Source of the DNA: Candidatus Iainarchaeum sp. | Lineage (GTDB): Archaea; Iainarchaeota; Iainarchaeia; Iainarchaeales; GCA-2688035 | Reading direction: 5' to 3' | NCBI GenBank assembly: GCA_017610175.1 | Contig: JAFCCO010000001.1 | Coordinates: 72,265-136,264, forward strand | DNA: 64,000 bases | In this document: positions 3,917-61,800 of the stretch, piece by piece | How the letters are laid out: the number at the start of each line of letters is the position of its first letter | Numbering within the stretch: the first letter of the stretch is position 1 | Translations under genes and position numbers: made by a program | The notes under the pieces: generated by a model | What the model saw: only the letters and a program-made list of their open reading frames with translations | Database searches by the model: none | Told to the model about the DNA's origin: nothing

Positions 3917-3928
3917 GTAATATATAAG
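3917..3928 (+). promoter_or_regulatory. Archaeal TATA-box-like element (taatatataag) about 25 nt upstream of a probable leaderless start at 3950
   Basis: AT-rich TATA-like octamer at canonical spacing before the ATG that begins the signal peptide MFKTYSKIVLIAFSLLLAANAFA. Confidence 0.4.
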
Positions 3929-3949
3929 AAGTGCATTATTTTTCATAGC

Positions 3950-42118: not shown

Positions 42119-42441
42119 TCGCCCCCGCCCATCAGCCCTGAATACATGTCCGGGCTGTAGTATTCGGGTTGCTGCTCTCCGCCCCCGCCCTGCTTTACTC
42201 CAAAAATCAGTGCAAAGATAACAAGCCCGAAGAAAACGAACGGCCAGTAGGGCTCAAGGCTTGACCTAAACATATATAATGCAGCCATTGCCACAACAAG
42301 AATTATTGTTGCGGAAACGCTTCTCATTGTAAGGATTGTCACCGCAACAACCGCAAAAGCCAGCCAGTTTTCGTTGAACTGGACGGCAAGCATCATCAGA
42401 ACGAGCGCGATCATGAAGGTAAACGAGTCCATTAATAGCAC
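42115..42441 (-). CDS. Small membrane protein with Gly-rich C-terminal tail
   Basis: 108 aa; three TM helices; tail KQGGGGEQQPEYYSPDMYSGLMGGGE paralogous to the tail of the 43084..43458 product. Confidence 0.45.
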   Translation of the reverse strand: MLLMDSFTFMIALVLMMLAVQFNENWLAFAVVAVTILTMRSVSATIILVVAMAALYMFRSSLEPYWPFVFFGLVIFALIFGVKQGGGGEQQPEYYSPDMYSGLMGGGE

Positions 42442-42714
42442 CTAATCAAATATCTTTACCTTCTCAAACAAAGTGTTTCCAAACGTTGCAAACAGGAAAA
42501 TCAGCACCGGAATGAACACAAGCTGCGGGAACTGAATTACTGTCAGGTAAACTACAATTACTGCAAACAAAATCGCAAGCTTTGCGCTCCCCAAAGCCTT
42601 TTTTGCCCAGCTGAAAATCCACACAAGGTAGAACAGTGAGAGCACTACCCAAATGTTGTCAAGCAAAGGATCCGCAAAGGGCCCGCTTACCGCAAGAATT
42701 GGCATCAAATCCAT
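42442..42714 (-). CDS. Small membrane protein
   Basis: 90 aa, two to three TM helices. Confidence 0.4.
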   Translation of the reverse strand: MDLMPILAVSGPFADPLLDNIWVVLSLFYLVWIFSWAKKALGSAKLAILFAVIVVYLTVIQFPQLVFIPVLIFLFATFGNTLFEKVKIFD

Positions 42715-42761
42715 TTTGTTTTCCTCATTAAATTAATGAATCTTATCTAATAAATTCCTTT

Positions 42762-43148
42762 CTATTTCTTCATATTCATCCCAATTCCCCACACAATTAC
42801 CGAAAGGAAAGAGAATCCCATCAGAAAGTACAGCAGAATGTATGCTGAGGCCGTAAAGTAAGCCCACTTAATTACAAGGAAATAAACAAGGGCTGCTGAA
42901 ATTATAAGCGAAATTACGCTGTTTCCAATGTATCCCCTCACAGTCGCAAAAATTATTATCGCAAGAATTATTCTCATAATGATGTCTGCAATCGGGAAAA
43001 CCGCCATAATAACCGGGGGGATTAATGCAACAACCACAAAGGCGGCAAGAATTATCAGCACAAGATTGCCTTTCTCATTCAACTTAACGCCTCCCTCTTG
43101 CAGGGGCTCTTGCCCTTGCGCCCTGTCCGGAAGCAACCCTCTTGGCAA
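42762..43148 (-). CDS. Small membrane protein (start uncertain)
   Basis: 128 aa ORF, overlaps upstream gene by 65 nt so the true start is probably internal; segment NEKGNLVLIILAAFVVVALI loosely resembles a class III (prepilin-like) signal. Confidence 0.35.
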   Translation of the reverse strand: MPRGLLPDRAQGQEPLQEGGVKLNEKGNLVLIILAAFVVVALIPPVIMAVFPIADIIMRIILAIIIFATVRGYIGNSVISLIISAALVYFLVIKWAYFTASAYILLYFLMGFSFLSVIVWGIGMNMKK

Positions 43149-43458
43149 GGTCTGCCCCGCTGCTTATTGGGCTCTGCTCTCCACCGCCTGAACCTCCTCC
43201 GACAAAGAAAAAGTCAATAAGGATTCCGGCCGCGCCCATCACAAGCAGCATCATAAGAACGTAAACCGTTTCAAAAAACCACGCATAGGGTGACAAAAGC
43301 ATAAAGTATGCAAACCCGACAATCAACACGATTGAAACAGGCCCCTTTCCCAAATGGTTTACCGCAAAGGAAATTATTGTGAGCAGTATGAATATCTTTA
43401 GGACAAAGGTCATGTCCCGAAAAAACTCCATTATGAACAGCATGGCTAAGTCTATCAT
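43084..43458 (-). CDS. Small membrane protein with Gly-rich C-terminal tail
   Basis: 124 aa; three TM helices; tail VGGGSGGGEQSPISSGADLAKR...RGRR; first gene after the giant ORF. Confidence 0.45.
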   Translation of the reverse strand: MIDLAMLFIMEFFRDMTFVLKIFILLTIISFAVNHLGKGPVSIVLIVGFAYFMLLSPYAWFFETVYVLMMLLVMGAAGILIDFFFVGGGSGGGEQSPISSGADLAKRVASGQGARARAPARGRR

Positions 43459-46400: not shown

Positions 46401-49400
46401 GCGTTCATTGCAGTGGTTAGTGCATCAATTTCCGCCTCTGTGCTTGCAATTTCTTCGGGAATCTTTTTTCCAAGGTCGTCAGTAATTATTTCCTGCCCTT
46501 GCTTTGTTGCGTCAGTCATTGTGTCGCTTGCTTGCCCTGCAAGTTTTCCGGAGCCCTTAAAACCGCTTTTTCCGAATCCAAGGAATCCTCCACTTCCGCC
46601 TGAAGTGTCGAAGAAGCTTGCGGCCGCATCAAGGTTTGGTGGTTTCTCTCCGGCCGATTTTGGAGTTGCGTTCTTTTGCCCTTGTGAATAATTGTTTTGT
46701 GCCTCGCCTGCCATATCCTGTGCTTCTGTTGCCTTGTCAAGCCCGTCCTGTGCTGTGTCTGCAAAGTCTTGTGTATTGTCAAGAGCGGCATCGGTTGCTT
46801 GCTGTATGCCCTCGGTTGCTGCCGTTAATGACTGGGCAGCTCCTGTTACTGCGCCTCCGGCTTGGCAAACAGTGTCAACCTGTGCGGCTTTTCCTGTTTC
46901 AAGTGCTTTGCTGGCTTTTTGAGTTGCATCAGCGGTTTCCTTTGCCTTTTCGGCCGCTTCAACTGCTTTGTCCGCGCTGTCAACCGCTGTTTGGGAGGCT
47001 TCCGCTGCTTTTGATGCGGCATCGCCTGCTTTTGTTGCTGCGTCCCCTCCGTCTGTTATTGCCTGGTCGTCAACTGATTCGGCAGCCTTTTGTGCGCCCT
47101 GCCCTGCTTTCAGCGCTTGCTGGGCTCCCATAATTCCTCCGATTGCGGCTCCGACTCCTGCGCCCGCAAGGTTGAAGAGTTCCTCTTCCTGTTCCTCTGC
47201 CATTCCCCAGGCACATGCGCTTGCGTCAACCGTAACCATTTCGGAGAGGCTTTTGTTCTTCAGCTGTGCTGTGTCCTTGTTTCCCTGCCCTTTGATGTTG
47301 AATTCGTATTTGTCAAGTGAGAAAATGTCGTGCTCTGACATGTCCACAAACACGTCAAGCAGCTTCACTTTTTTGAAGCTTCTTCCAGGAGTTCTTGCCG
47401 AAACCCATACTCCGTACAGTCCGGGAATTGTCTGGCGCATTACTGTTATTTCCTGCACCGGGTTGGTTGGGGTTGTTGAAAATTTTTGCGGCATTACATT
47501 TATTCCGCCCTCTGCCCCGCCGCTGCATCCTGTGTCGTTTCTGCAGAGTGAAAAGTCAATTGTTGTGTTTCCGCAGTTGCTTGCGTCAACCACAAATGTT
47601 GTGCTTCCGTTTTCAACGCCTGGAACAAGCACAACCGATTCCGCGCCCTCGTACGTTACACAGCTTTCAAGGTTCATTATTTTGATTGATGAATCTATAT
47701 AGCTTGGGGAGCTTCCGACCTTTTGGTAGCCTGTTCCCTCGCCTGTAAACATTTCCCCGTCAATTGAAACCTGGAATTCGGCGTCCTGCCCAAGGTAGCC
47801 TTGGAGGGGGGTAAATGTAAGCAGGCCGTAGTAAAGCCCTTCTTCGCGAACGTCCTCAAACATTCTTGACCAGACAATTGGCTTGAGTGTTTCAATATTG
47901 CTTTCAGCTGAAAGGGCGTCCTGCAGGCTTAATTCAACGTTTCCCATTATGTCGCTTTGCCAGTCTATTTTTGCAACAAGCCTGTCGAGCGGTAGGAATT
48001 TTCCCTTGCTCATGCAGTTGTTCTGCACCTCAAACTCGAGCACTGCCGCATTTCCTTGTGTTGTTGTTTCCCACTTGCTTTTTGTTATTACAACACAGTC
48101 TTCTGTTTCAGGCAGGCCGCTTATTGTTACGTTTACCTTTAGGGGGATTATAAAGTCGTAGACAGCTCCAGCGTCCTTGTTTTCAAATGTAAGCCAGACG
48201 CTTCCCTCAAGCTTTTCCGCTTTCCTCAGGATTTCCGAAGCGTTCTCGCTGAGCTTTACCTTAACAAGCTCTACTTCCCTTACCTCATTTCCTTCAATTG
48301 TTGTTCCCTGGAACTGCCCAAGGTAGTTGGCCATTGTGGCTTCATCCAAAAGGCCTTTGAACCGCCCGCTTATGTTTGTTCTTGTCAGTTCAAGCTCGCT
48401 TGGGATAATGTTTGTTATTTCAATAAATTTGTTTGCCTCTGGCTCGTCCTTTGTTGAGAGATTTGAGGTTATTTGTTCCGGCGAAAAGAGTAGAACGTTT
48501 GCGTCAACAAACAGTTCAATCGGTTCTGCGGCATAGCCCGGCTTTTCCGCCCTGATTGTTATTTTTGTTCCCGCTGAAGAGGCCGGGATTGTAAAGCTTG
48601 CTTTTCCCAAACTGTTTGTTGTGTCTGTCCAGCTTTGCTCTGTCCTGTTGTAGGCGCTTTTTGTAATGCTTACTATTGCGTTTTGCAACTCAAACTTTTG
48701 CCCTCCATCAACCAATTCGTAGATTGTAACGTCCATTGGTGTTGCGACAAAGGATGGAACCACAAGCGGCTGAACCTCTATTGCCATGTTCTTTTCGGAT
48801 ACAGCGCGAATTGAAACAATTTTTTGGAACACGATTTTTCCGTCTGCAACCACCTTTATTTCAAAGCTGTCCGAGCCAAGCTCTGTTGGCTTGAACTTAA
48901 GTTTTGCGTTAACCGTTTTGCCTTTGGTGAAGTTTCCAAGGCTGATTTCATCAACCGTCCTTACCCTGATGTTTTCGGCGGTAATTGTTCTTGCGTCCGC
49001 GTCCTGTATTTCGTATTCTGTTATCAGGAATGTTTCATCCAACCCTATTATTGACAGTTCACTGTCGCTGTAAACTGTGCTGCTGTTGTTTGAGATAATA
49101 AAGTTGAATACATGTGGGCTGTTGACGCGTGCCTCGTACGGTGCATATATGTAAAGCCCTTCCTCTTCGTCAAGAATCCATTCGCCGCTGTAGCAGAAGT
49201 CTTCGTCGCACTCCGCAAGCTCTCCCTCGTAATATTCCAGGAAATATGATTTTGCGTAGAGGGCCTGCTTTTGTGAGCTGCTTTCCTCAACCCCTAGTGT
49301 GCTGTCGTAGGGGTCCCTTTCAATTGCGTCGTCAACCTCTGTCCACGCCCTGTAGTGCATTGGAAGCATTGTTTGCGGTGTTATCTGGCTTTTTACCCTT

Positions 49401-51574
49401 ACTTCAATTCCAAAGAAATAGTTTGCGGCCTCTATGTCATCCCACTCAAAGTTAACCCATTTTGCGTCCCCTTTCACACGGTTTTCAAAGTCAACGCTGT
49501 ATCCGGTGGGAGAGGTAAATGTGCTGCCTTTGAGAACTGAGGAAACGTTTCCTGCTATCAGGTCCTTTATTACAAGCGGGTCGTTTGCAAGAAGGCTTTC
49601 GTTTCCAACGCGAAAGTGTGCGCCGCCCCTGTCATAGCCGTCTGTTTCCGGAACGGCCAGCTTGAATTTTAGGATATAACGCTGTCCGGCATTTAGTGAG
49701 CCGGCAGGCTGCATGCTTGGTGTGAATGCGCCGACAAAGTCTATTTTTGGCTCGCCTGAAATAAGTCTTGGCTCAAGCTCTGCCAAAAAGTTAACAGTTG
49801 TTTCCGGGTAAAGCTGCTTTGGCATTGTGTGGACTGTTTGGAAATTGGGGTGTTTTATAACTGCGTAAACTTTCTTGTCCGCTTTCAATGAGTAGCTTGC
49901 TGTCCCGTCCGTTAGCGGAATTTTTCCAAGGCTTGTTCCTGTTATTGAAAAGAATTCAACGTCTGATTCTGCAACACTCTGCCCTTCCTCATCAACTGCC
50001 GCAACATTTACTGTTGTTTCCCCAATAAAAAGCTCTACAACAAAGTCGGTTACCGTTCTTATGTCAATCTTCTTTCCGTCCAATTTGTTGTCTCCGGATG
50101 AGGGGAATTTTTCAACATAGATGTAGTATGACTCTTCCTTGACTCCGATAAATTCTGCGTTCCCGTTGAAGTCCGTTATTTCGGCGTCGTAGGGTGCCAA
50201 AAAATCATTTTCAAGGAAGCGAAGCTTTACTTTTGCGTTTTCAACAGGCACTTCGTCCTCGTCAAAAACCCTTACATTAATTCTCCCGCTGTTTTCAGCA
50301 GTCATTTTCTCCATTTCCAGCTCTATTACCCCGTCAATTTCGCCTGCGAGATCAAGTTCTCCGTAGAGGTAATCATCGTGCACGCTGTAAAGGATGTAAT
50401 CGTCATCTTCCTCTATTGGGAAAATTACTGGCTCTCCTGCTTCGCCTGTTTTGCTCTCTGCAACGGTTTTGCCGTCCGCCCCAACAAGCCTTATTGCGGC
50501 GTCTGCAATTTCGGCACCTGAATCGGCATCGACCGCTGTGATTTCAAGCGTTCCCTTAATGCTTTTGCTTACCACAACGTTGACAGATTCTGTTTCGTCA
50601 ACGCTAATTCTGATGTTTTCCTCGGTTGCAATTGCGTAATTCCCTGCCGTGTCCTGCACGCCCACACTGTATGTGCCCTGCACAATGTCCCTGAAAATTG
50701 TTTCACCGTAGAATTGCGTAAATTTCTCCTGTTCCTTCAATCCGTCTGCGTCAAACAGGCTTACTTTAAAGCTGACCGTGTCAAGAAGCTTTCCCTGCTT
50801 GTCCTTTATTTTTACCCTCAGGCTTCCAATTGCAGTTTCCTCTTCCTGCAGCCTCAGGGTTACAATGCTTTTGTCTAAGAGATACACATCTCCCGCAAAT
50901 TCAACGGGTTCGAGGACAGTTGCCTGCATCACTCCGCAGCCTGGCGGTTCCTGCACCGTTATTGTTCCATCCCGATCCTCATCAATAACTTCCGGGGGGA
51001 CAGGGGTTATTCCGCTTGAGCAGGCAAGCCTTACCCTAATTGGCTTTGATGAAATCCTTTCCCCGTTTGTGTACTGGAAAACAAGTGTTCTTTCAATGAT
51101 GTCAGGCAGGCTTCTTTTAAGCTTTATCAGTTTCTCCTGCGCCCCTGTTGAGACAAGAACTGTGTCCTCAAAGGGCAAAAATTCGGTTCCGCCAATCGTA
51201 AGTGTTTTGATTCTAAGTTTTGCCTCTTCCCCTGCCGGGAGGATAAGCAGTGCTTTTCCACTGCTGTCGGTCAAAACGGTTCCGGTTAGGTCACCTGAAA
51301 TGAATGTAATTTCCACGTTTGCCAAAGGGTTGCCTGCATCGTCTTCCAGCAGCACATTGACTACTCCCTGCTGGATTGTAAGCACTGGGAGAAGGAAAAT
51401 CGCGCCCAGCCCAATGACTGTAACAATTAGGATTGCAAGCAGGGACGGGAAAACGCTGTCGATTGGGTCTACAACCTTGTAAATGGGAATGTAGTTGTTT
51501 AGATTGTCAAGCACGGAATAGTACTTGTCTTCAACCGAAAAGTAAAGGTCCTTTATGTTGTCAACTATTCCCAT
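43499..51574 (-). CDS. Giant surface protein (2691 aa), N-terminal membrane anchor, Ig-like/CarbopepD_reg-like repeats, central glycine-zipper/low-complexity/Cys module
   Basis: Single uninterrupted ORF; N-terminus DLYFSVEDKYYSVLDNL...IPIYKVVDPIDSVFPSLLAILIVTVIGLGAIFLLPVL; C-terminus ...FWWNPKTLYEMVGSYSSLSEIEEGLAADQTCIGYGS; both ends homologous to the next giant gene. Confidence 0.7.
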   Translation of the reverse strand: MGIVDNIKDLYFSVEDKYYSVLDNLNNYIPIYKVVDPIDSVFPSLLAILIVTVIGLGAIFLLPVLTIQQGVVNVLLEDDAGNPLANVEITFISGDLTGTVLTDSSGKALLILPAGEEAKLRIKTLTIGGTEFLPFEDTVLVSTGAQEKLIKLKRSLPDIIERTLVFQYTNGERISSKPIRVRLACSSGITPVPPEVIDEDRDGTITVQEPPGCGVMQATVLEPVEFAGDVYLLDKSIVTLRLQEEETAIGSLRVKIKDKQGKLLDTVSFKVSLFDADGLKEQEKFTQFYGETIFRDIVQGTYSVGVQDTAGNYAIATEENIRISVDETESVNVVVSKSIKGTLEITAVDADSGAEIADAAIRLVGADGKTVAESKTGEAGEPVIFPIEEDDDYILYSVHDDYLYGELDLAGEIDGVIELEMEKMTAENSGRINVRVFDEDEVPVENAKVKLRFLENDFLAPYDAEITDFNGNAEFIGVKEESYYIYVEKFPSSGDNKLDGKKIDIRTVTDFVVELFIGETTVNVAAVDEEGQSVAESDVEFFSITGTSLGKIPLTDGTASYSLKADKKVYAVIKHPNFQTVHTMPKQLYPETTVNFLAELEPRLISGEPKIDFVGAFTPSMQPAGSLNAGQRYILKFKLAVPETDGYDRGGAHFRVGNESLLANDPLVIKDLIAGNVSSVLKGSTFTSPTGYSVDFENRVKGDAKWVNFEWDDIEAANYFFGIEVRVKSQITPQTMLPMHYRAWTEVDDAIERDPYDSTLGVEESSSQKQALYAKSYFLEYYEGELAECDEDFCYSGEWILDEEEGLYIYAPYEARVNSPHVFNFIISNNSSTVYSDSELSIIGLDETFLITEYEIQDADARTITAENIRVRTVDEISLGNFTKGKTVNAKLKFKPTELGSDSFEIKVVADGKIVFQKIVSIRAVSEKNMAIEVQPLVVPSFVATPMDVTIYELVDGGQKFELQNAIVSITKSAYNRTEQSWTDTTNSLGKASFTIPASSAGTKITIRAEKPGYAAEPIELFVDANVLLFSPEQITSNLSTKDEPEANKFIEITNIIPSELELTRTNISGRFKGLLDEATMANYLGQFQGTTIEGNEVREVELVKVKLSENASEILRKAEKLEGSVWLTFENKDAGAVYDFIIPLKVNVTISGLPETEDCVVITKSKWETTTQGNAAVLEFEVQNNCMSKGKFLPLDRLVAKIDWQSDIMGNVELSLQDALSAESNIETLKPIVWSRMFEDVREEGLYYGLLTFTPLQGYLGQDAEFQVSIDGEMFTGEGTGYQKVGSSPSYIDSSIKIMNLESCVTYEGAESVVLVPGVENGSTTFVVDASNCGNTTIDFSLCRNDTGCSGGAEGGINVMPQKFSTTPTNPVQEITVMRQTIPGLYGVWVSARTPGRSFKKVKLLDVFVDMSEHDIFSLDKYEFNIKGQGNKDTAQLKNKSLSEMVTVDASACAWGMAEEQEEELFNLAGAGVGAAIGGIMGAQQALKAGQGAQKAAESVDDQAITDGGDAATKAGDAASKAAEASQTAVDSADKAVEAAEKAKETADATQKASKALETGKAAQVDTVCQAGGAVTGAAQSLTAATEGIQQATDAALDNTQDFADTAQDGLDKATEAQDMAGEAQNNYSQGQKNATPKSAGEKPPNLDAAASFFDTSGGSGGFLGFGKSGFKGSGKLAGQASDTMTDATKQGQEIITDDLGKKIPEEIASTEAEIDALTTAMNAARPPCLARSCAPGTCCPPKCVPTCPGAACEAAIDEAIVELQAFKTEQLAEMEAENEAMKTAMGSAKDTIKDTISDQLKNSIKGIDDAVPAVKNALKAAKAASKAAEGMAMASSMQKGDFWAITGTFAALGALAGGLLGGLFGADDDPCAQRVQQPLVDYIINLKEDALPLTIDRQGIAGTWNTEDAKVFGTWERQDVAVVFENTALEESEPVYGTTAFSATKHNHANPTIIPGDDGDFGPFNVPDISAETFTQRIHLKFNTKTIIDKIPPYRPESGCLQGTMFGTTGYDALPRVKLSWAWNEVSGITNESCLAENPNGIYCDATQFGIMLTKRIKILEDFLKENPVITCPDNPAMLVLEQIQAPMETHEVPSGTMGLSAIEKSVAGTTAAVAVKIENNSGFDKSGDIEIYLVAPGGISLSAGQQTCTQAAFVPAGSTETVSCGFVDLPESSGYYSARAKLISEDTINRNDVNSEVPEYFDAEYQDRTSSLTVSFLIPGTQEEGTCWLPYSTRLFDGKPALEYYLEEMDEFGEVVWTDEIQNLNDFRDYVQFKVSLMEDGYSTDFQSDFVDYYDEIAFMDAPEWFVSRGDGAFIDYFGDTSRMHFVRRYVNSTKLSNAGKYDILLKIDFENKDFTLFDTSGDPTAEIEISMYIAEEPFPNSIFYYLPFNGELGKTTSNGRVGYGLDYINAGDAFTVNSDDGILVNTEEISGSTTVSTLNTDTVFGFKNINSLASNRGMLLKIKRGSSYNENDLLFYPHYATPVMMVINKGSTDEPFSAFFELLDVDQPQEVGSSLSFWTGAGQCLDFTGIPVFEKFSNTPDREGVSGDPLAVWQYAYALDWKDAERSGDVYLKTYIYTPTNGSFALKGIAPEGLAFLTPDSALASSVELKGISTMNNNSKSARDSVAELQDLFELVEAGDVCVTDTGSETSFWWNPKTLYEMVGSYSSLSEIEEGLAADQTCIGYGS

Positions 51575-51607: not shown

Positions 51608-54600
51608 TTAAGACGCGCCTATGCAGTCTGCTTCTGCCTTGCTTCTTTCGCCTGCAAGCTCTTCAAGGATTACCTTTGGGTTCCAGAAGAACTGGTTGCT
51701 TATCCTGTTGTCTGAACCGATTAGGCAGACCTTTCCTTCGCTTACAAGGTCGAATACATCCTCTACCGAATCAATACTGCTTGAGCCATAGCTGTTGAAC
51801 TGCATTCCGGGAACTCCGTTCAATGCAATCTGTGTGCCTATGTTGTCAACTGCGATTAAGGCCATTTCGTCTGAGTATGATCTTCTCTGCATCAGGCTGC
51901 TTGTGTTCTGTGGTGTGAAAACAACACTTTGCAGGTAGGTGTTTCCCTTCCTGATTGGGTTGCACCATTCAATTCCGTAATCCTGAATATCTGTTCCTCT
52001 TGCACAGCTTATGTTTGCCGTTACCCCTCCGTGCACGTCCCAAGTGTTCTGCCATGCGTCAAGCATTGGGCTGTCCTCAAAGTCGCGGCAGTTTGTTCCA
52101 ACCCCGTCCCATGGGATCATCTTTGAGAATGCCGTTTCTGGGCTTCCTCCAACTTCAATAGAGTAGAATCCGTAAGCGTCCTCTCCCTCTCCGTAACCAA
52201 CCTTCATCATTATTGGGGTGGCGTAGCTTGGGCTGAGCACAATATTTGTTTCGTCTGCTCCTGCCTGCACATCAAGCAGTATTCCCCTTCTGTCAATGTT
52301 CAGTCTCCTGAAGTCATCGTTGAATCCTGCGTTAACCCATCCTCCGAATACAGGGGTGCTTGCCGCAAGGTTTGTTGAAACAACCAGGTGGTCTGATTCG
52401 CTGTTGATGCTGATTGTTTCCTCGCTTGTTTGCCTGAAATTAACTCCGTATCCCTGCCTTCCGTTAAGTGAATCCGCCCCAATCCTTCCGTCAAACGGCA
52501 GGTAGTAGAACGGGCTGTCGGGTTCAGGCATGCTGAGCTGTGACATTCTAACCTTTACAACAGCATCAGGCTGTCCGTTTGAGAAGAATTCCCAGTTGTC
52601 GTTGTTGAATTCAACGTCAAGGGTAATTTCGTACTTTCCGGCCTGCAGCGGTGAGTGCGGTGCCTGTGCATAATCAAATATGAAGTTGTCCCCGCTTGAG
52701 AAATATTTTCCAAAGCTGTCGTCTCCCTCGTAGTACCACGCCGGGCAGTCGAAGAAGCTCTGGTGCACGCAGAACTCGTGGAAGTCGGCCCTGAAATCGT
52801 TTGTGTATGCATCTCTTATGAGGAATGCGTTGAATTTCAGCAGTTTTAGCATTTCTTCCTTGTCTGCACTGCTCCAGGCGTTGTTTCCTGCAACCTCTGT
52901 TGCCTCAAGGAACTGCTTGAACCTTAGGGTTGTGTATGGCTCGCATTCCTCTATTCCAAGCTCTCCCATTATTAGCGTTGTGCTTATGCTGTCTGAGTCC
53001 TCGTCATTGTTTTCGCAGTCCGGGCAAAGCGTTGGCACGATTATTGCCTCTGTTTTGTATGACCCTGCCGGCACTCCCGTGAACAGGCAGTCAACTATTT
53101 CCCTGCTTATGAGCTCAATTTCCTTTGTGCAGCTTTTTACAAGCGCGTCTGTTTCCGCGTTCTTTATGTTAATTGTTACCTCAACCGCCATTGCCTTGTT
53201 GTTGTTGCTTTCAACGGTTGCAAATATGTTTGCGTCGTTGTTGACCTTTCTTGCCTGGATTTTTGTTAGTGCGACATCTGCAACTGTTGAAATGATTGGC
53301 CTTTCTTTTACAGATGAGGCGCTTCCCGGGCTTGGGCAGTCAAACGGTTTGTTTTCCTGGATGAATTCCTGCAGTTTCTTTACCTTGCGTAGCAATTCAA
53401 TGCTGAACTGTGTTGCATCACAGTATATGTAATCGTCATTTCCCTCGTCGCAGGTATCAATGTTTATGCTGTCCCAGTCCCATTTGAACAAAACCTTTGG
53501 AACTGCCGCTTTCCCTGTGACCCCAACTTTGGTTCCAAGCTTGCAGTTCGGAATTGGCCCCGGCTCTTTCTGCGCTTCAAGCGGGTTGAAGGCGTTGAGC
53601 TGTATCTTGAATCTTTGTGAGTATGCGTCCCTTGACTCTTCCTCAATTTCTTCAGGCCTTGTTTCTTCGTCAAACTCATATTCGGTCACATAATTGATCC
53701 TTTCACCGCTTACTTTCAGTGTCCTATAAATTGGTGTTGCAGGGTCAGGCTGCACAACCCCTGTTGTGTTAATAACGTCAAGCCTTGTGTATTCCACATT
53801 GAGCCTTTCGTTTTCGCGGTTTGGCTCGGTGTATGATTCGTCCCGCAGTTGTACTATTATGTCCTCGCTTGGCACTTCCTCTATTGTGGTTTCGGTTTCC
53901 TCACCTTCTCCCTCAATAGTGAGCAATGCCCCTGGCAGGAACAGTTCTGCGGTGTGAACCTCAATGTCCCTCAAAATCTCTGTGAATGTAAATGTTCCGT
54001 CTTCCTGCTGTGAGTAAGCCCAGAGCGTTCCCATCAAAAAGCCCTGAATGCCCCAGCTTGCAAAGCTTGGCGGGCCCATTATTCCCTTTGCAATTCCACC
54101 AACCATTCCGCCCATCATGCCCTGTCCAATTCCTGAACCGATCGACTGCGCTGCGCCTGTTGCAAGGCCTGTTGGCCCTAGGATTGGCTCGTCTGATGGG
54201 GCGGCATAATCAGTTCTTGGGAGTTGTGGTTGTTCAACAGGGGGTTTTGGTTGTTCAACTGGGGCTGCTGGTTGTTGTACTGGCGGACTAACTGGTTTTG
54301 GTACAACTGCAGGGGCTGCAGGCTTGTCTCCGCCCGCTTCCAATCCTCCAAGTATTCCTTTATCTGTTATTCGGACTCCTTTTTTGTCGCGCCAGTCCTC
54401 GCCATCATAAATGTATTCTCGCCCTCCAAATGTTCTTTTAATTTCCTTGCCGCCGCCTTTTGCTGCGTCTTTTGCGGCGCCTGTAAAGAAGCTGCTTCCT
54501 TCACCCATTGCTGAGAATCCACCTGCAAGGCCCATTGCGAGGCCCACAATTGCGCCTGTTTTCATGGCGTCCATCCAGCTGTGCTCGTCCCATTCAACGG

Positions 54601-57600
54601 TTATTTCAACTGCCTTGTCGTAGCAGTTGTTGATTACCTCTGATGTGTCAAACCCATCTGTTGCGTTTGCAGGGTCATCAAACACTTCGAACTCGTATTT
54701 TGTCAAATCAAGGCATTTGCCACTAAAGATTCTTGCCCTCACCGTTTTGACCAGTTTTTTCTGTGTCTGGTCCGAGCCCTTTGCGTAAATGTTTATTGGG
54801 TACTGTCCTGGAATGTTTCTTTCCGCATACACTTCAATCTCTTTTGACTCGTCAGATGTCATTGAAAGGGTCCTTTTTGAAAGGGTCAGTTCTGATTCAA
54901 GTGTTATTTGGGTCTGTGGCCCGCAGTTTCCAAGTGTTTCAATGTTGAATACGTCGCTTTTCCTTGGGGCAATTATCAAAACTTCCTTGTCAACGTATAT
55001 GCAGTCCACAAGGTTTGCGGTGGTCAGCTCTGCCAGAAGCTTGTCTGTTAAAAGCTGCACTTTTGCGTCCGTTGGGTTGCCTGCCTGAAAGATTATTTCC
55101 GCGTTTGCTATTCCGTCTATTGCGGCGTCAGGCATGAATGAGAGTACAACCGAGATTGTTTCCCCTTCGGCAAGCCTTGCCGCAAATTTCCTGAAGTAAC
55201 CGCTTCTAAGTTCTATTGCCGCCTGCTCGGTTCTTAGTTCAAATTGCCCCACACTATTGCCCTGCCATGCGACCTTTACCTCAATGTCCTTTAATTCAAC
55301 AGGGTTGCCTTCTTTTGCGCAGTTGTTTTGCACTTCAAACTCAACTTCAATGGGGTTTCCTTCTGTAAAGCCCTTCCATTCCTTCTTTGTTATGCTAAAG
55401 CACGTGGGGTCTGTTACCTCGCCTCCCAATCCAATGCTTACAGTTGTTGGAACGTTAAATTCCCACAGTGAACCGTATGCGCTAAGCCCTACCTGGAGCT
55501 CTCCCTGCAGTGTTTTTGCTTCTGAAACCTGTTTTCCGGCATCGCTTAGGAATGCTTTCAGGCTGTATTCCCTTTCTGCCCCTGCCTTGATTGTTTCGCC
55601 TTCAAATGTGAAGAGCCAGTTTCTGATGCGTTCCTCGTCAAGCAAATTGCGGAACCGCCCGTCCAGTTCAAGGCTTGATATTTTAACGTCAAAGCTTGAC
55701 AGGTTTTCAATTGTGAATTTCTTTTCGCCCTCTGGGTCTGTTGCAACGTTTAGCGAGATTCCGAGCCTTGACGGCTTTATTGAGACAATTTCCTCGTTTA
55801 CCCCAAGTTCCCTTTCGTAGAGTTCAAAGTCAAGCTTTTCAATCTGAAGCTTTAGTTTTTCTCCGGGGGAAAGTGCTGGCAGTGTAAGTATTGCGATTCC
55901 CTTGCTGTTGGATGTCTTTTCCGCCAGAACGTCTCCAAACTTGTCCCTTACTTTTACTGTTGCGTCTGCAACTTCAAGGCCTGCCTGGTTTTTCACGGTA
56001 ACTGTTATCTTGTTTTCAATTCCGCTTGGAAGAAGTTCCGGCACAACAACTGTTTCAAACCTGTTTGCGGCAGTTACCCCTATTGTGATTGTTTTTGAGA
56101 ATACAATTCTTTGCCCTGACCTAATTTCTATCAGAAGCGGGGCTGTTCCAGACTGGTTTGGTGTGAAGTTAACGCGCCCGGTTGCGCTTCTGTTGGGCAG
56201 CAAATCCCCGATTGGAATCCAACCTGTTTCGTTGTCGTTTGCCTCTCCGGGGATTGTTGTTCCCTGTGCGCCGGTAATTTCGTAATCGTTTATCAAAAGC
56301 GAGTCGTTTTCGTTAACAAGCCTGATTTCTGCCCCAAGGTATGAGTCTGTTTCAAACTCCGAGTTGTTGAGAATGCTGAAGTTGAGCTTGTATTCCCTGA
56401 ATATTTTTCCCGTAAAAGACTCTGAAACGCTTTGTGCAAGCCCTTCTGAGAGGTCAAGAATGTTTGCCGAGAAGCAGAACTGCTCGTCACAAACGGTTTC
56501 TGTCCCAACCTGGAAAACTTCCCTGTGGGTGTTTGCGTAAAGTGATTCTGAAACCCCGTCCACGCTTCCAAGCACTTCATCAATCGGGTTTCTTACAAAT
56601 TCGCTGTCCTGTTCAGCCCACGCCCTGTAGTGGATTGACAGTTCGTCCTCGACTTCTGCGGTTTCCTTTACTTCAATCTCCACTTCCACGTCGGTTAGGC
56701 CTGTTGCAAAGTTTCTGATAATAATGTTTGCCCACTTGGCTTTGTCACTGCTTATGTGTTCGGAGTCAACGTCGTATCCGTTTTCGGGGCTGTAGGATGT
56801 TGCCTTGATTATTCCGGCTTCCCCCGGGACGTTCAATTCTTTTATCACAAGCTTGTCAAGTTCCATTATTTTCTTGTCGCCTGTTCTTACATGCATTCCG
56901 ATTGATTCATAATTTGTGTTTGCAGGAACCCTTAGCTGGAACATTGCCTTATATCTTCGCCCTGGCGCAAGCACTGAAACGATTTTTCCCTGCTTGTTGA
57001 AAATGCCCTTGAATTCAACCTTTATGTCCCCTGAAATTATCTCTTTTTCAAGAACCGCTGTGATTTCCTGCACTCCGTTTGGTGGAACTGAGTAAATCAG
57101 GGATGTGTAGTTTGTGTACCCCTTTTTGCTTGCGATTATGTAAATTTTCTTGTCCGCGCGGGTGGTAAGGTCAAGCGTGCCGTTTATGTCTTCCACCGGC
57201 TTGCTTCCCCCTCCAACAATTTTGTCTCCCACAACTTCGATGAATGCAACTGTTGCAAACTGAAGCGGGTTTCCGTCCTCATCTAGCACGCGTGCCCTAA
57301 TTGTTCCGTCCGGAACCGTTAAGACAACGGTTACAATTGTTTTGTCCGCAGCCCTTTCAATAAAGTGCTCCACTTCGCTCCATCCTGAGCTTGATGCCTT
57401 GAATGCAAATGCCTTGTAGTCCCCTGACTTCACGCCCTTAAAGCTTGCGATTCCGTTTATGTCCGTTGTCTGGTTTTGGAACCCAAGGGAGAAGCCGTCC
57501 GGGCTGTGCAGTGAAACTGTTGTGTTTTTCACAAGCCTTCCTGTCTGGTCAATTACCTTTACCTTCATTGTTCCGCCGCATGCAGGGGTGTATGGCTCAA

Positions 57601-58819
57601 GTTCTATTGTTTGCACAGAGTCACTTATGCTTACCTTAACCGTTCCAAGGCAGTAGTCTTCGTGGTCGATTAGTGCGGTGTATTCAACATCTTCGGTTAC
57701 TGTAAATGTCACTTTGCCGTCTGAGTTTGTGTTGCGTGCAGGGGCTGCGTCCTCCACACCTTTTTTCAGGCTAACCAGCGCATCTGTTATTTCATCATTG
57801 TTTCTTTCGTTTACAATCTTAAGCTTTATTTCCCCAACAATGTTTTGTTCAAGTTCAAGTATAACCGTTTCAGAGGAGTCAACAACAATTGAGAAGACCG
57901 CGCTTTGGGTGCTTCCAAAGCCGCCTGTTCCCGCTGTTTTAACATAGTAGTCCCCTGCAGGCTTTGAGAATATTGCAATCCCGTTTGCGGTTGTCTGGGA
58001 GTCAATTGGCCCTGAACCTGATAATTCCCCTGTGTCCTTGTAGAGGTAAACTGTTTCTGTTTCGGATATTATTTGCCCGTCCGCTTTCAGTTCAACCCTA
58101 ACGCTTCCTGTTGCCTCGGCAGGGGCTGAAAGGTAAATTGTTTGTGTTCCGCTTGTAATTTCAATGCTGCTTTTTGGGTCAAAGCTGTCCGATTCCACGC
58201 TTGCAATTAATCCGTTGCATCCTGCGGGTTCAATAACTGTTACCTGCCCGTTGGAAACTTCTATGCTGCTTGGTGCCTGCACATCTGAGTTTTTGCATGC
58301 AAAATGCAGTGTAACAGGCTCCCTTATTGGCTGGCTGTATTCGTCCTTTAGCAGGATATTAAGCTCTCTTGTCAGGATTTCGTTTAAGTAGAATTTTTTT
58401 GTAAGGCTTGCGCTCTCAAGGGTCACATAATCGGTTGTTTTTTCATAGCCCTCTTTTGAAATCTCCACGTCCAAACTGGCTCCGAGCGCCAATAAAATCG
58501 GGTCTGTTTCCCCGAGTTCGTTTGTTGTGCCTGTAAATACCACTTCATCATTGAAGATTACTTTGACTGCAGCATTGGGCAAAGGGTTGTCGTCTTGGTC
58601 AAGAACCTGTACTGCAAAAGAGCTTTGGCCTGTTCCCGCAAAGAATCCAATAACTGCCCCGAGGGCAACAATTGCAACAAGGGCAAGCAATAGTGCAAAG
58701 CTTGGGGCGATTTTGTCAATCGGCTCTATTACCTTGTAGACCGGGACTTTCTCGTCAATTTTGTCAAGGAGTCCGTACCACTTGTCTTCCCAGGAATAAT
58801 ATAGGTCGTTTAAGTTCAT
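51608..58819 (-). CDS. Giant surface protein (2403 aa), paralogue of 43499..51574
   Basis: N-terminus DLYYSWEDKWYGLLDKIDEKVPVYKVIEPIDKIAPSFALLLALVAIVALGAVIGFF; C-terminus ...FFWNPKVILEELAGERSKAEADCIGAS; central glycine-zipper segments flank a Pro-rich PVEQP repeat. Confidence 0.7.
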   Translation of the reverse strand: MNLNDLYYSWEDKWYGLLDKIDEKVPVYKVIEPIDKIAPSFALLLALVAIVALGAVIGFFAGTGQSSFAVQVLDQDDNPLPNAAVKVIFNDEVVFTGTTNELGETDPILLALGASLDVEISKEGYEKTTDYVTLESASLTKKFYLNEILTRELNILLKDEYSQPIREPVTLHFACKNSDVQAPSSIEVSNGQVTVIEPAGCNGLIASVESDSFDPKSSIEITSGTQTIYLSAPAEATGSVRVELKADGQIISETETVYLYKDTGELSGSGPIDSQTTANGIAIFSKPAGDYYVKTAGTGGFGSTQSAVFSIVVDSSETVILELEQNIVGEIKLKIVNERNNDEITDALVSLKKGVEDAAPARNTNSDGKVTFTVTEDVEYTALIDHEDYCLGTVKVSISDSVQTIELEPYTPACGGTMKVKVIDQTGRLVKNTTVSLHSPDGFSLGFQNQTTDINGIASFKGVKSGDYKAFAFKASSSGWSEVEHFIERAADKTIVTVVLTVPDGTIRARVLDEDGNPLQFATVAFIEVVGDKIVGGGSKPVEDINGTLDLTTRADKKIYIIASKKGYTNYTSLIYSVPPNGVQEITAVLEKEIISGDIKVEFKGIFNKQGKIVSVLAPGRRYKAMFQLRVPANTNYESIGMHVRTGDKKIMELDKLVIKELNVPGEAGIIKATSYSPENGYDVDSEHISSDKAKWANIIIRNFATGLTDVEVEIEVKETAEVEDELSIHYRAWAEQDSEFVRNPIDEVLGSVDGVSESLYANTHREVFQVGTETVCDEQFCFSANILDLSEGLAQSVSESFTGKIFREYKLNFSILNNSEFETDSYLGAEIRLVNENDSLLINDYEITGAQGTTIPGEANDNETGWIPIGDLLPNRSATGRVNFTPNQSGTAPLLIEIRSGQRIVFSKTITIGVTAANRFETVVVPELLPSGIENKITVTVKNQAGLEVADATVKVRDKFGDVLAEKTSNSKGIAILTLPALSPGEKLKLQIEKLDFELYERELGVNEEIVSIKPSRLGISLNVATDPEGEKKFTIENLSSFDVKISSLELDGRFRNLLDEERIRNWLFTFEGETIKAGAEREYSLKAFLSDAGKQVSEAKTLQGELQVGLSAYGSLWEFNVPTTVSIGLGGEVTDPTCFSITKKEWKGFTEGNPIEVEFEVQNNCAKEGNPVELKDIEVKVAWQGNSVGQFELRTEQAAIELRSGYFRKFAARLAEGETISVVLSFMPDAAIDGIANAEIIFQAGNPTDAKVQLLTDKLLAELTTANLVDCIYVDKEVLIIAPRKSDVFNIETLGNCGPQTQITLESELTLSKRTLSMTSDESKEIEVYAERNIPGQYPINIYAKGSDQTQKKLVKTVRARIFSGKCLDLTKYEFEVFDDPANATDGFDTSEVINNCYDKAVEITVEWDEHSWMDAMKTGAIVGLAMGLAGGFSAMGEGSSFFTGAAKDAAKGGGKEIKRTFGGREYIYDGEDWRDKKGVRITDKGILGGLEAGGDKPAAPAVVPKPVSPPVQQPAAPVEQPKPPVEQPQLPRTDYAAPSDEPILGPTGLATGAAQSIGSGIGQGMMGGMVGGIAKGIMGPPSFASWGIQGFLMGTLWAYSQQEDGTFTFTEILRDIEVHTAELFLPGALLTIEGEGEETETTIEEVPSEDIIVQLRDESYTEPNRENERLNVEYTRLDVINTTGVVQPDPATPIYRTLKVSGERINYVTEYEFDEETRPEEIEEESRDAYSQRFKIQLNAFNPLEAQKEPGPIPNCKLGTKVGVTGKAAVPKVLFKWDWDSINIDTCDEGNDDYIYCDATQFSIELLRKVKKLQEFIQENKPFDCPSPGSASSVKERPIISTVADVALTKIQARKVNNDANIFATVESNNNKAMAVEVTINIKNAETDALVKSCTKEIELISREIVDCLFTGVPAGSYKTEAIIVPTLCPDCENNDEDSDSISTTLIMGELGIEECEPYTTLRFKQFLEATEVAGNNAWSSADKEEMLKLLKFNAFLIRDAYTNDFRADFHEFCVHQSFFDCPAWYYEGDDSFGKYFSSGDNFIFDYAQAPHSPLQAGKYEITLDVEFNNDNWEFFSNGQPDAVVKVRMSQLSMPEPDSPFYYLPFDGRIGADSLNGRQGYGVNFRQTSEETISINSESDHLVVSTNLAASTPVFGGWVNAGFNDDFRRLNIDRRGILLDVQAGADETNIVLSPSYATPIMMKVGYGEGEDAYGFYSIEVGGSPETAFSKMIPWDGVGTNCRDFEDSPMLDAWQNTWDVHGGVTANISCARGTDIQDYGIEWCNPIRKGNTYLQSVVFTPQNTSSLMQRRSYSDEMALIAVDNIGTQIALNGVPGMQFNSYGSSSIDSVEDVFDLVSEGKVCLIGSDNRISNQFFWNPKVILEELAGERSKAEADCIGAS
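54226..54300 (-). repeat. About 21-bp imperfect tandem repeats (tggttgttcaac...) encoding a (PVEQP)-type proline-rich segment inside the 2403-aa gene
   Basis: tggttgttcaacagggggttt / tggttgttcaactggggctgc / tggttgttgtactggcggact read from the plus strand; minus-strand translation PAAPAVVPKPVSPPVQQPAAPVEQPKPPVEQPQLP. Confidence 0.5.
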
Positions 58820-58887: not shown

Positions 58888-61800
58888 TTACTTTAGCAGC
58901 TGGGTTTTGTTCCACTGCAGGCCAAGTTTGTTGCTTTCGATTTCTGTAATGCAGATATTTCCTGTCTTGATTTCTTTTAGCAATGAATCCAGTGAGTACT
59001 GCTCTTCTTTGTTGCCTGTTGGGGTAATTCCAACTGCCGCTGTTTTAAGTTCCTGTGTGCCTGCGACTGTGACACTTCCGGTGGGCTGCCCGCGGACGCT
59101 TGCACTGACTTTTGCCCCGCCCTGCGCGCACTTTATTTCCAGGTTGGTTTTCATTTCGTATGGTATGAACATTATTCCCTTTACACTTGTAGCTGTTGCA
59201 AGATCCTTCTTGAATCCAAAGTAGTCCTGCCCAACGCCGTTGCAGAGTTCTCTTTGTGCAACAATGTGCTGTATGCGGCTGTCCTTTCCGATTCCGCTCC
59301 ATTCTATAAGTGAAGCCATTTTTTCTGTCCGGCTTGTTGAGAGAAGGCCGCCCGGCACCGGCAGGTCGTAGAGCAATCCTTCTTGCCCGTCCCTGGATAC
59401 CATTTCGGCAGCAACAACCACCGGGTATGATGGCCTGAATTCAAATGTGTTCCCTGATATTGCAAGGACCTTTCCGTCTGCACTGCCTGTAACTGTGGTG
59501 TTTGTTGTAAATGTAAATTCTTTCATGGCTTCTGTTGCCGCAAGGGCTTTAACTTCAACCCTGTTTGGATCCTGTGCATCTATTCCTGTTTTGATGAACA
59601 GGGTTCTGTCTGCGTTTTTCAGGGCTGTTCCGTAGCCGACTCTTTTCTTTGCTGCATCCGCAACTTTTCCGTCGATTGGAATTTCGAACAACGGGTTCTT
59701 TGCGTAATCTGCGCTTATTTTTGCAAGCCTTTGTTCTTCCTCGAATTTGAGTTCAAATTCATCGTTTGCCCAGTTGTAGTTGATGAAAACATTGAACAGG
59801 CCAGCTTTAATGTCTCCGCTAATTTTCCATTTGGCGTATTCAACATTGTCGTATTTTGCTGCAAAGTCTGTTCTAAGTGCTGATGTGTATCCGTCCTTGA
59901 TTAGGTATGCGAAGAAGTTTACGTCTTTGTCAAAGAGTTCCTTTACTTTCCAGTCACTTTTGATGTTTGCCGCTTTTTCAAACGCATTCGTTACGCTTTC
60001 CTCGTCCATCTTGTCCTTGTGCTGTTCTGCGACTGTGAACCCGTCCATCTTTGTTAAAAGTTCCTTTAGGAAGTCCACGCTTATCGGGACATCTTTTGCA
60101 GTGGTGCTAAGGTCAACCTTGCAGCATTTTGCTTTTGTTTTATCTACTTTAGGGGCTGCATCGCTACTAAGGTCAATTGCGGTTCCTGTACAAGCCATTG
60201 CTTCAAAGCACTTGTCTTTGCTGTCTAGTGCTTTCCACATCTTGTCGTGCAGGCGCTCATATTCGTTGAGTGTTATAACATAGTCCGCAAACGGTTCTGT
60301 TGAAGTTTCAACCTTGTCTATTCCGATTGCCTCGCACTGTGCTTTGTATTTGGCTGCGTCTTCACATGCAAGGTCTTTGCTGACTGTGGACAGTATAAGT
60401 CCTGTGTAACTGTCGTTAATCTTTCCGATTGCTTCGTTTGTTTTTGTTAAGTATTCGAACAGCTTGCTTTTGTCGGTTGGAAGTGTTGGAACATTTGCAA
60501 ATGCTGCTTTGACGTTTGCAAGAATCTTTTCGTTGGTTTCACTGAGCGGCTTTCCGTCTGTTCCAAGGAAGAATGCAATTTTCTTGTCCTTTACATCCTC
60601 GTCTACGACAATCTGCTTTTTGGCCCACCTGAACAGGTTTTCGGTGTTCTTGATGTTTGTAAGGTCGTTGCCTGATTTGCCTGTTGCGGCCTTTACAACC
60701 TCTTCGTTGTTGATAAGTTCAGTTTCCCACTTCTCGCTGCCGGTTTTAATCTTGTCCTTAATTTCTTTTGCCTTCTTGTTTACTTCAATGCTGAATTGCA
60801 CTGCATCACAGAAGGTGTTTATTGCTTCCAGTCCGTCTTTTCCTGCAATTCTGTCGCAGATATATTTGTCGTCGTGGAGGTCTTTGCTCCAGTCCCACTT
60901 AATCTTGTCAAAGCCGTATTTGGTGTATATTGCGCTTCCGCTTTGTCCCTGCGGGCAGGCAATTATTTCGCCGTTTGTTGGTGGCTTTGGTCCGACTGTT
61001 CCAATTTGTGCTGTTTCACAGCCTACCACGCTGTCTGATCCAATTTTGAAATCCTTGTGCAAAACATTGAGTTTTAGCGGGATGCTGAATTCTCTGGGTG
61101 CTGGCCAGCAGTCTCTCTTGAGTTTTGCGGTGATTGAGGTGCTTATTTTTGCGCATTTGTAGGGGAGTGCGCTTGCGTCAATCTTGATTGCAATATTGTG
61201 GCCGCTGTCTGTGATTGAGGGGGTAAGTTTAACTCCGCCCGAGTCCGATTGGGCTATTGAAACTTCAATTATCCTGTCGTTGAATCCGCACAGGTTTCTT
61301 GCAAGCTTCATCATCTTGGGTGCGGGCTCCACTGTTCCTCTCCCTCCGGGGATGTTCTTTTGCGGCACAAACCCTGTTGGGGTACTGCCTGCGTAAACTT
61401 TTGTAAAGTCAAGTGCATCTGTGTTTATGCATGCAAGGGGGTCGTTTAGCCAGCAGCTTCCGTCACCAGTCATTCTTTCCGCAAGTTCACCCTGTGGGTT
61501 TTGCTTTGCCGCATTCTTTATGCATGCATCAATTGTTTCGCCAAGGCCCCATGTGTCCTGGAGCATTACTCGGAAGAATGCTGTGTCTGATTGTCCGAAT
61601 GCAGTGCTGTACTTAACTTGAGCGCTTGCCCTTATTGTCGTCCTGTAGTAAGCGCTTGATGCGGTCATTCTCAGCCCAAAGAGGGACTGGAACGGCAATT
61701 CTCCTGAGGTCTGGCAGAGTTGCTGCCTGTACTGTATGTTTGGCTTTACTTCGTATTCAATAATTTGGATTGTTTTTCCGTCCTCGCCTGTTTGCTTGGT

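Follow-up and report, generated by a model that had tools for sequence, protein, structure and literature searches.

A glycine-zipper module enclosing a hypervariable loop in a giant, probably extracytoplasmic protein of Candidatus Iainarchaeum sp.

On the minus strand of a 64,000-nucleotide stretch of Candidatus Iainarchaeum sp. DNA (GenBank assembly GCA_017610175.1, contig JAFCCO010000001.1, positions 72,265 to 136,264; hereafter the window), three giant open reading frames (ORFs) lie in tandem in the order g3, g2, g1. The protein encoded by g2 carries in its middle two glycine-rich hydrophobic arms on either side of a low-complexity loop. Do these arms span the membrane, or are they exported with the rest of the protein, and what has happened to the loop between them? 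A preliminary description, made from the letters of the window alone, had proposed a unit of conserved arms and a swapped loop under diversifying selection. We find that the loop is a hypervariable mosaic segment, and that the module is best regarded as derived from a central membrane hairpin found throughout the family. Our tentative reading, of limited confidence, is that in g2 it forms a glycine-zipper clasp that is exported and presents a spacer loop open to replacement.

Layout of the central module and its counterparts

The product of g2 begins with a conserved motif of about 40 residues, followed by a first transmembrane segment (TM1), an array of immunoglobulin-like (Ig-like) domains, the central module and a conserved C-terminal region of about 800 residues (Table 1); the Pfam domains recognized in it are CarboxypepD_reg and Big_1. 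The three peptides on which the module had been proposed are all located in g2, at residues 1414-1451, 1500-1534 and 1555-1602 (window 54014-54580). The motif GxxxGxxxGxxxG occurs in g2 at residues 1422, 1563 and 1567 only and in g1 at residues 1471 and 1855 only, that is, exclusively in the arms, where shuffles preserving composition lead one to expect about 0.1 motif per protein (P = 0.001 for g2 and 0.012 for g1). The arms thus have the GxxxGxxxG(xxxG) periodicity in two neighbouring helices that characterizes the Pfam glycine-zipper families.

The two arms differ in architecture. Arm 1 is a single helix of 25 residues, 20 of them uncharged, with the zipper G1422-G1426-G1430-G1434. Arm 2 consists of a helix, a PPS break and a second helix; its first part, arm 2a, is helical over residues 1569-1581 in the AlphaFold2 (AF2) model and ends in a mostly conserved K/R, and its second part, arm 2b, is the best-conserved piece of the module. 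Between the arms lie 120-144 residues. In the AF2 model, which was built on an alignment of 16 sequences, the module is flanked on both outer sides by beta-strands, and its helices are inserted between the strands that join the N-terminal half (about 1,350 residues) to the C-terminal half (about 800 residues). Apart from a small beta-hairpin, the loop is predicted to be mostly disordered, with a predicted local distance difference test (pLDDT) below 50; its sequence is of low complexity and contains no Cys.

The repeat seen in the Pro-rich spacer of the loop is real but small: Tandem Repeats Finder reports 2.8 copies of a 21-nt unit with 83% matches at 54219-54283, which at the protein level is the heptad PV(E/Q)QPxx in about three copies. 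Pro/Ala/Thr-rich stretches are present in the loops of other orthologues, and the heptad itself is absent from them. Motifs of the form G..Y(Y/F)..DG..Y, similar to the beta-hairpin element IKRTFGGREYIYDGEDWRD, recur across the orthologue loops; a Pfam search with this element returned no match. A test for N-glycosylation sequons found no enrichment in the halves, and none was possible in the loop.

Table 1. Positions of the giant genes, their module elements and the adjoining small genes in the window (all on the minus strand)
Feature	Window position	Residues	Remarks
g2	51608-58819	2,403 aa	ORF with translation; 33 homologues of about 2,400 aa
g2 TM1	58631-58699	41-63	signal-anchor, strongly hydrophobic; Kyte-Doolittle about 3.0
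g2 central module	54008-54580	1414-1604	
g2 arm 1, peptide first quoted	54467-54580	1414-1451	
g2 arm 1 helix	54503-54577	1415-1439	WMDAMKTGAIVGLAMGLAGGFSAMG; AF2 pLDDT about 90; identity to orthologues 40-66%
g2 loop beta-hairpin element	54386-54442	1460-1478	small; AF2 strands, pLDDT about 73
g2 Pro-rich spacer	54218-54322	1500-1534	AF2 pLDDT <50
g2 arm 2, peptide first quoted	54014-54157	1555-1602	
g2 arm 2a	54074-54145	1559-1582	SIGSGIGQGMMGGMVGGIAKGIMG; Gly/Met-rich glycine-zipper segment; zipper motif at 1563 and 1567
g2 arm 2b	54008-54073	helix 1586-1604	PPS break, then helix FASWGIQGFLMGTLWAYSQ; AF2 pLDDT about 90
g1	43499-51574	2,691 aa	paralogue with equivalent module
g1 module	45956-47215	1454-1873	bracketed by Cys1454 and Cys1873
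g1 arm 1	47120-47182		
g1 Cys knot	46319-46399	1726-1752	PPCLARSCAPGTCCPPKCVPTCPGAAC; within Ala-rich loop of about 350 aa
g1 arm 2	45968-46045		
g3	58888-63999		runs past the window end; without arms; two G/Y/S-rich low-complexity inserts
g3 upstream insert	62542-62706		one domain upstream of the module site
g3 insert at module site	61834-62088		G/Y/S/N-rich; follows shared N-x-C-Y-D motif
Five small proteins with 1-4 TM segments	41747-43458	124, 128, 90, 108, 123 aa	immediately downstream of g1

The paralogue alignment that the preliminary description had called for bears out its placing of g1 and g2. By BLASTP the two are collinear (g2 residues 2-1379 with g1 residues 6-1427, and 1667-2401 with 1907-2688), and the lone unaligned gap contains both modules, which are therefore positionally equivalent. 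The arms of g1, about 350 residues apart, share the motif type with those of g2 and cannot be aligned with them in sequence. The third paralogue is another matter. The Gly/Tyr stretch of g3, GGFGGYSGGGGYSGGFAG (window 62599-62652), had been assigned to the equivalent place; profile-profile alignment of g2-type with g3-type proteins (probability 96.7%, E = 3.5e-10) puts it instead as an insertion between g2 residues 1286 and 1287, about 130 residues and one domain upstream, and the module site itself holds a different insert. Central hydrophobic segments or arms were looked for in g3 and its orthologues and none were found; the only membrane anchor of g3 is N-terminal.

The preliminary description left out of account that relatives have a transmembrane hairpin in the place of the arms. 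At the module site, paralogues and relatives carry a tight, strongly hydrophobic helical hairpin; in many relatives of g1 type, the one in the complete genome GW2011_AR10 among them, it amounts to 45-65 continuous hydrophobic residues. Joining of the two helices by a short turn is restricted to g1-type relatives (e.g., P0028, P0039, P0115 and AR10) and is not found in g2 or g1. A CPPC or CxPC motif occurs at the hairpin tip (P0028, P0039, P0115, P0145 and the g1-type protein of L017), is retained in g1 inside the Cys knot, and could be a disulfide or metal site. In the g1 family the module is further bracketed by two Cys in the contexts AS.C.WG and DDPC (in g1, Cys1454 at 47213-47215 and Cys1873 at 45956-45958). 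Among homologues P0028-P0048, which this comparison covered, the pair is found together in 14, is missing altogether from three of g1 type (P0030, P0044 and P0045) and is never reduced to a single Cys, a pattern best accounted for by a disulfide that would fasten the hairpin at its base, on the outer side. A few members of the family lack arms altogether (P0041, P0174, P0180, P0144 and P0071).

Conservation of the arms and divergence of the loop

Searches found 33 homologues for g2 and 21 for g1. In full-length comparisons of g2 with seven orthologues, the identity is 45-66% for the N-terminal half, 50-60% for the C-terminal half, 22-66% for arm 1, 29-45% for arm 2a, 40-81% for arm 2b and 16-35% for the loop. 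By this measure the arms are conserved in orthologues as well as the folded halves, or better. The preliminary picture of conserved arms around an exchanged loop therefore holds region by region among orthologues, but not between g1 and g2, whose arms agree in motif type only. The g2-type consensus is DW.DAMKTGA.VGL.TGL.GG for arm 1 and G.GK.ILG.PSFLGWGLQGF..GT..AY for arm 2. The conservation extends to individual W, Q, T, Y, P and S residues, which points to packing against protein rather than contact with lipid.

The loops of the orthologues range from 80 to 493 residues, are rich in G, T, A, P and S, cannot be aligned and keep no common fold. The low-complexity stretch that g3 carries at this site has a similar G/T/P/A/S-rich composition. 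Cys positions are conserved inside a loop of 38-56% identity, and of the 24 homologues with Cys inside the module, 21 have an even number of them. Profile searches with long loops gave sub-threshold matches of knottin-like and choline-binding-like type.

Among the collections searched, the closest relative of g2 is only 65% identical at the amino acid level. Strain-level variants of its module were sought with a degenerate DNA pattern (no matches) and by a protein-guided scan of metagenome contigs (one spurious low-complexity match only). Nonsynonymous (dN) and synonymous (dS) divergence was estimated by the Nei-Gojobori method on the DNA of two close orthologue pairs from other genomes, P0012/P0017 (loci L020 and L021) and P0050/P0119 (loci L022 and L023), as given in Table 2.

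Table 2. Divergence by region in two close orthologue pairs
Pair	Region	dS	dN	dN/dS
P0012/P0017	N-half	0.152	0.025	0.16
P0012/P0017	C-half	0.201	0.041	0.21
P0012/P0017	arm 1	0.23	0.11	0.50
P0012/P0017	loop	0.62	0.30	0.48
P0012/P0017	arm 2	0.54	0.30	0.56
P0050/P0119	flanks	0.67-0.71	0.041-0.048	0.06-0.07
P0050/P0119	arms	0.54-0.82	0.034-0.071	0.06-0.09
P0050/P0119	loop	saturated (proportion of synonymous differences 0.72; bootstrap dS at least 1.45)	0.44	about 0.17 (confidence interval 0.11-0.33)

In both pairs the dN of the loop is 7-12 times that of the flanks, and its dS is 3-4 times higher or saturated. The arms of P0050/P0119 are under purifying selection as strong as that on the ectodomains; those of P0012/P0017 are relaxed, with dN/dS about 0.5. 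The P0017 loop contains an internal tandem duplication of 63 residues. In two further pairs, P0014/P0016 and P0013/P0020, the identity of about 85-95% falls to 14-26% directly after arm 1. In four of four long-loop pairs, then, the loop has diverged far beyond the remainder of the gene, and the segment between the arms can be at saturated divergence while the rest of the gene remains 91-98% identical. In the tight-hairpin pair P0039/P0115 the dip in identity is merely small.

The diversifying selection that had been proposed for this block can now be divided into two parts. Diversification is supported; but dN/dS never exceeds 1, and positive selection is therefore not demonstrated. The signal in the loop is one of relaxed constraint, with replacement of alleles, long-standing polymorphism or hypermutation brought about locally by slippage as possible causes of the raised divergence. 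In P0012/P0017 the island of divergence covers the whole central module, arms included, and recombination breakpoints may lie at or near the arms.

Hypervariable surface loops between conserved elements are familiar from the disulfide-bounded D-region of type IV pilins. The module resembles the D-region in having conserved brackets, namely the arms and, in g1-type proteins, the covarying Cys pair, around a far more diverged and mosaic segment. It differs in that the brackets are hydrophobic glycine-zipper helices and the loops are often of low complexity, with a five-fold range in length. The window shows no donor cassette and no template repeat of the kind that belongs to diversity-generating retroelements (DGRs); no repeat of at least 40 nt involving the g2 module is present in the 64 kb, of which part of the ORFs were scanned for reverse transcriptase domains.

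Exported clasp or membrane hairpin

Whether the arms can enter a membrane was assessed from the free energy of insertion (dG), taken as a simple additive sum on a scale after Hessa et al. (2005), so that all values are approximate. TM1 of g2 scores -3.5, as against +3.7 for arm 1, +7.7 for arm 2a and +6.7 for arm 2b; the g1 arms score +4.0 and +1.4, the medians for g2-type proteins are +5.7 (arm 1) and +4.9 (arm 2), and the second helix of the tight hairpins scores -1.3 to -4.1. Across 134 family members, the best helix in modules of 70-130 residues has a median of about 0 and lies below 2 in 23 of 28, while modules longer than 130 residues have a median of +4.7 to +4.8 and fall below 2 in only 9 of 97. 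Module length and arm dG are correlated (Spearman rho = 0.40, p = 2e-6), and expansion of the loop accompanies loss of arm hydrophobicity across the family. Helices on either side of a long loop must insert alone, and the second must restart the export of 800 residues, which argues that the long-loop modules are exported.

Both halves of the protein are probably on the same side of the membrane, outside the cytoplasm, as judged for g2 by homology. This placement draws on the Cys sets of the two halves (8 invariant in the C-terminal half and 8 near-invariant in the N-terminal half), on their Ig-like and CARDB-like domains and on the covarying bracketing Cys of the g1 family. The block in g2 would then be the central hinge module of a giant cell-surface protein anchored at its N-terminus, with both halves as ectodomains. 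With so little hydrophobicity and so much sequence between them, the g2-type arms seem unable to work as independent stop-transfer and re-start signals, and on that ground the whole module would be exported with the ectodomain. Packed against each other by their glycine faces, the arms could form a compact clasp that either rests at the membrane's outer surface, upon it or within it, or contacts partner subunits, for which g1 and the five small membrane proteins encoded downstream are candidates. The loop would be an exposed, replaceable spacer shown by the clasp, diversified by slippage in the 21-nt repeat, by duplication and indels, and by replacement of alleles.

A clasp of this kind has its nearest parallel in the glycine-zipper two-transmembrane domains, for which Pfam PF05433 (Glycine zipper 2TM domain/Rick_17kDa_Anti), PF13488 (Gly-zipper_Omp) and PF13441 (Gly-zipper_YMGG) and the SlyB/Pcp-type lipoproteins served as the comparison set. 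The module shares with them two neighbouring helices with Gly at every fourth position, marginal hydrophobicity and a presumed role in tight helix-helix packing at or in the membrane, the tight hairpins of g1-type relatives coming closest. The Pfam glycine-zipper profiles gave no match to the g2 module at E <= 10, E = 0.64 and 0.73 (10 bits, below the cut-offs of 25 and 28.9) for the g1 module, and at best E = 0.036 (14.4 bits, below the cut-off of 25) for the P0028 hairpin; a fold match to SlyB13-BamA (7ojf) was not significant (E = 6). Unlike those domains, the helices of the module stand in the middle of a 2,400-residue archaeal giant, 120-490 residues apart.

Several observations weigh against export and favour instead a true anchor, in which arm 1 and arm 2b span the cell's own cytoplasmic membrane as a glycine-zipper hairpin with the loop in the cytoplasm. 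The protein would then make three membrane crossings, with arm 2a at the inner face and with the loop as an intrinsically disordered linker that drifts under scant constraint. The homologous tight hairpins at the same position in relatives, including the g1-type protein of GW2011_AR10, must span the membrane, and a conserved topology with a cytoplasmic loop is the parsimonious assumption. An additive sum overestimates dG for Gly-rich helices. The arm helices of g2 are long enough for transmembrane helices of about 19 residues, as the 25 residues of arm 1, 20 of them uncharged, illustrate. Arm 1 and arm 2b exceed in hydrophobicity every 19-residue window of the g2 ectodomains (window minimum dG 7.45) and lie inside the range spanned by membrane segments of the TrkH encoded in the same genome (-1.8 to +7.5), so that they may be embedded in the membrane. 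The loop is less acidic than the ectodomains (-0.024 vs -0.056 per residue, p = 0.001), and the mostly conserved K/R between arm 2a and arm 2b is what would be expected at a cytoplasmic face. Even Cys counts are equally compatible with CxxC metal sites, and the raised dS of the loop could partly reflect misalignment or slippage in low-complexity sequence, with inflation possible in P0012/P0017. Finally, marginal helices could be chaperoned by the five small membrane proteins of the operon.

We nevertheless rate a true anchor, the main rival, somewhat below the exported clasp. It requires each arm of g2, despite its positive dG, to insert independently across a loop that reaches 120-490 residues in the family, and arm 2b to restart an 800-residue export. 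Independent insertion would call for strong arms around long loops, whereas long loops are found with weak ones. Within 20 residues of the arms, K and R are commoner on the outer side than on the loop side (4.3 vs 2.5, p = 0.0005), so by that count there is no positive-inside bias; the answer of the positive-inside test is conflicting and varies with the measure, near-arm K and R or whole-loop acidity. The composition of the loop and the Cys patterns are of extracellular type, and relaxed constraint by itself leaves the raised dS of the loop unexplained.

An improbable variant is that the exported hairpin is a latent insertion element, which would enter the membrane of a host cell on contact and so anchor a symbiont or form a pore. 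Many members of the DPANN lineage are host-attached according to the literature, and a glycine-zipper motif is essential for the membrane insertion or translocation of CdzC/CdzD of Caulobacter (PMC5380434), Tde1 (PMC10240207), TelE (PMC10434224) and EsxX (PMC12744356). Like these toxins, which are cell-surface-associated or contact-dependent, the module has the zipper motif and a marginal hydrophobicity that would permit export first and insertion afterwards; hypervariability would be expected of a host interface, and the operon is conserved together with a pilin-like protein and small membrane proteins. The toxins, however, are small bacterial proteins or C-terminal toxin domains that travel through type I, VI or VII secretion systems and have immunity genes, which is not so for the giants. 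No toxin domain, cognate secretion system or immunity gene was found in the giants or the scanned neighbours, and neither profile nor fold searches gave a significant similarity to toxin families. A host or symbiosis of Candidatus Iainarchaeum sp. is not known. Moreover, the hairpin has no shielding helical domain, its flanks being beta-strands; tip loops of up to 490 residues would have to cross the target membrane or impose a non-spanning insertion; and the strongly hydrophobic hairpins of relatives would stay trapped in their own membrane.

That the loop is a ligand- or receptor-binding surface under positive selection, with the arms as a mere scaffold, is the view closest to the preliminary description and a very doubtful one: the excess of dN, the Cys positions kept among variable residues and the recurrent beta-hairpin motifs speak for it, but dN/dS stays at 0.48 and 0.17, site-wise tests are impossible from two sequences, the g2 loop is low-complexity, mostly predicted to be disordered and free of Cys, and orthologue loops of such different lengths conserve no fold.

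The giant family and its operon

The module is set in an uncharacterized, widespread family of DPANN envelope proteins. A search with the C-terminal half of g2 (residues 1603-2403) retrieved 600 representative proteins at E <= 1e-3, 285 of them at E <= 1e-30; among the best 150 of the 600, the match is C-terminal in every full-length protein of 2.1-3.25 thousand residues. The named members belong to the Diapherotrites and Micrarchaeota, and the names attached to homologues and related loci, GW2011_AR10 included, point to Candidatus Diapherotrites/Iainarchaeum, a lineage of the DPANN archaea. The g2 protein shows the features that define the family, namely the N-terminal motif with TM1, the Ig-like array and the C-terminal region of about 800 residues with its 8 invariant Cys. 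The motif, EDKYY..LD...P.YK..DPID..PSF, is common to all giants and precedes TM1 (58700-58819 in g2 and 51446-51574 in g1); it matches no Pfam family and may serve as a signal for recognition or assembly. The C-terminal half is predicted with confidence (pLDDT 87), and comparison with the PDB and BFVD revealed no relative of the whole fold apart from a CARDB/Ig-like domain. Searched against Pfam and NCBIfam, the giants and their module, N-terminal motif and long loops, together with the neighbouring genes, returned Ig-like domains and sub-threshold noise only, and sequence and profile searches of the PDB gave no matches. Annotation of the family stops at 'carboxypeptidase regulatory-like domain', and a description of it was not found in the literature on Diapherotrites/Iainarchaeota or DPANN. 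Contigs L008, L010 and L012, which carry a giant gene, are filed in Thaumarchaeota, Falkowbacteria and Chloroflexi bins and are probably mis-binned.

The best-known giants of comparable kind are SPEARE and the SVXNc_0300-type proteins of Nanohaloarchaeota, which have 5-9 thousand residues and are proposed to act in cell-cell interaction (PMC10266531). Both groups are very large, membrane-anchored proteins of DPANN genomes with ectodomains rich in Ig-like domains. Measured against that published description, Pfam and NCBIfam scans of the present giants found no VirB4/TraG-like ATPase, beta-propeller or protease domain of the SPEARE kind; they also differ in size (2.3-3.2 thousand residues) and in gene arrangement, three paralogues lying in tandem within a conserved operon that also encodes a pilin-like protein and five small membrane proteins.

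In other genomes the synteny runs from a pilin-like protein of 564-575 residues through g3-type, g2-type and g1-type giants to the five small membrane proteins, whose order and size are kept in other Iainarchaeota contigs (L002, 24938-26888) and which have no Pfam match. In related genomes the 564-575-residue protein, which is Cys-rich, precedes the giants upstream of the g3-type gene (L001, 136-1830; L002, 1-1378), and its N-terminus is of the class III (pilin-like) signal type, MFPTNDKG/FNLFTALISFLLIMLAVLL. A fourth giant, of 2,796 residues, lies further upstream in L001. The synteny extends to a coiled-coil protein that is transcribed divergently (window 41211-41750) and likewise has no Pfam match. 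There is a slim chance that the operon of pilin-like protein, three giants and five small membrane proteins encodes a DPANN-specific envelope machine in which the zippers are membrane-active and the tip loops are exchanged cassettes. The g1 and g2 hairpins may then insert into the membrane of a partner or host or form an oligomeric channel, and hosts or viruses may drive an arms race in which strains swap the loop cassettes.

Elsewhere in the window, a 508-residue ORF (39615-41141, minus strand) between the giant operon and PolB was considered as a degenerate HerA/VirB4-like ATPase and rejected, there being no match to a family or to the PDB. A secreted protein of 1,166 residues (32671-36171, minus strand) has an N-terminal signal peptide and a repetitive beta-helix-like sequence, with no Pfam or NCBIfam match. 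The ORFs at 3902-5680 and 5677-8217 encode a signal peptide and a C-terminal transmembrane segment. A tRNA of 129 nt (10152-10280, minus strand), matched by Rfam and not reported by ARAGORN, probably contains an intron, which fits an archaeal origin.

Abundant as they are, DPANN archaea have mostly not been cultured, and their contact with other cells is little understood; hence the interest of a giant family with 600 representative clusters, syntenic and present in the complete genome GW2011_AR10. If the module is merely a disordered linker the result is ordinary. A fast-changing loop between helices matters only as a lead to how DPANN cells face hosts or viruses. The family offers a natural series, from tight membrane hairpins to long loops between weak arms and on to proteins without arms, in which to study the gain or loss of a membrane hairpin. 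The central module is the sole part of the giants that behaves like an interface; it could be used as a marker for strain typing and is a candidate site of interaction with a host or virus.

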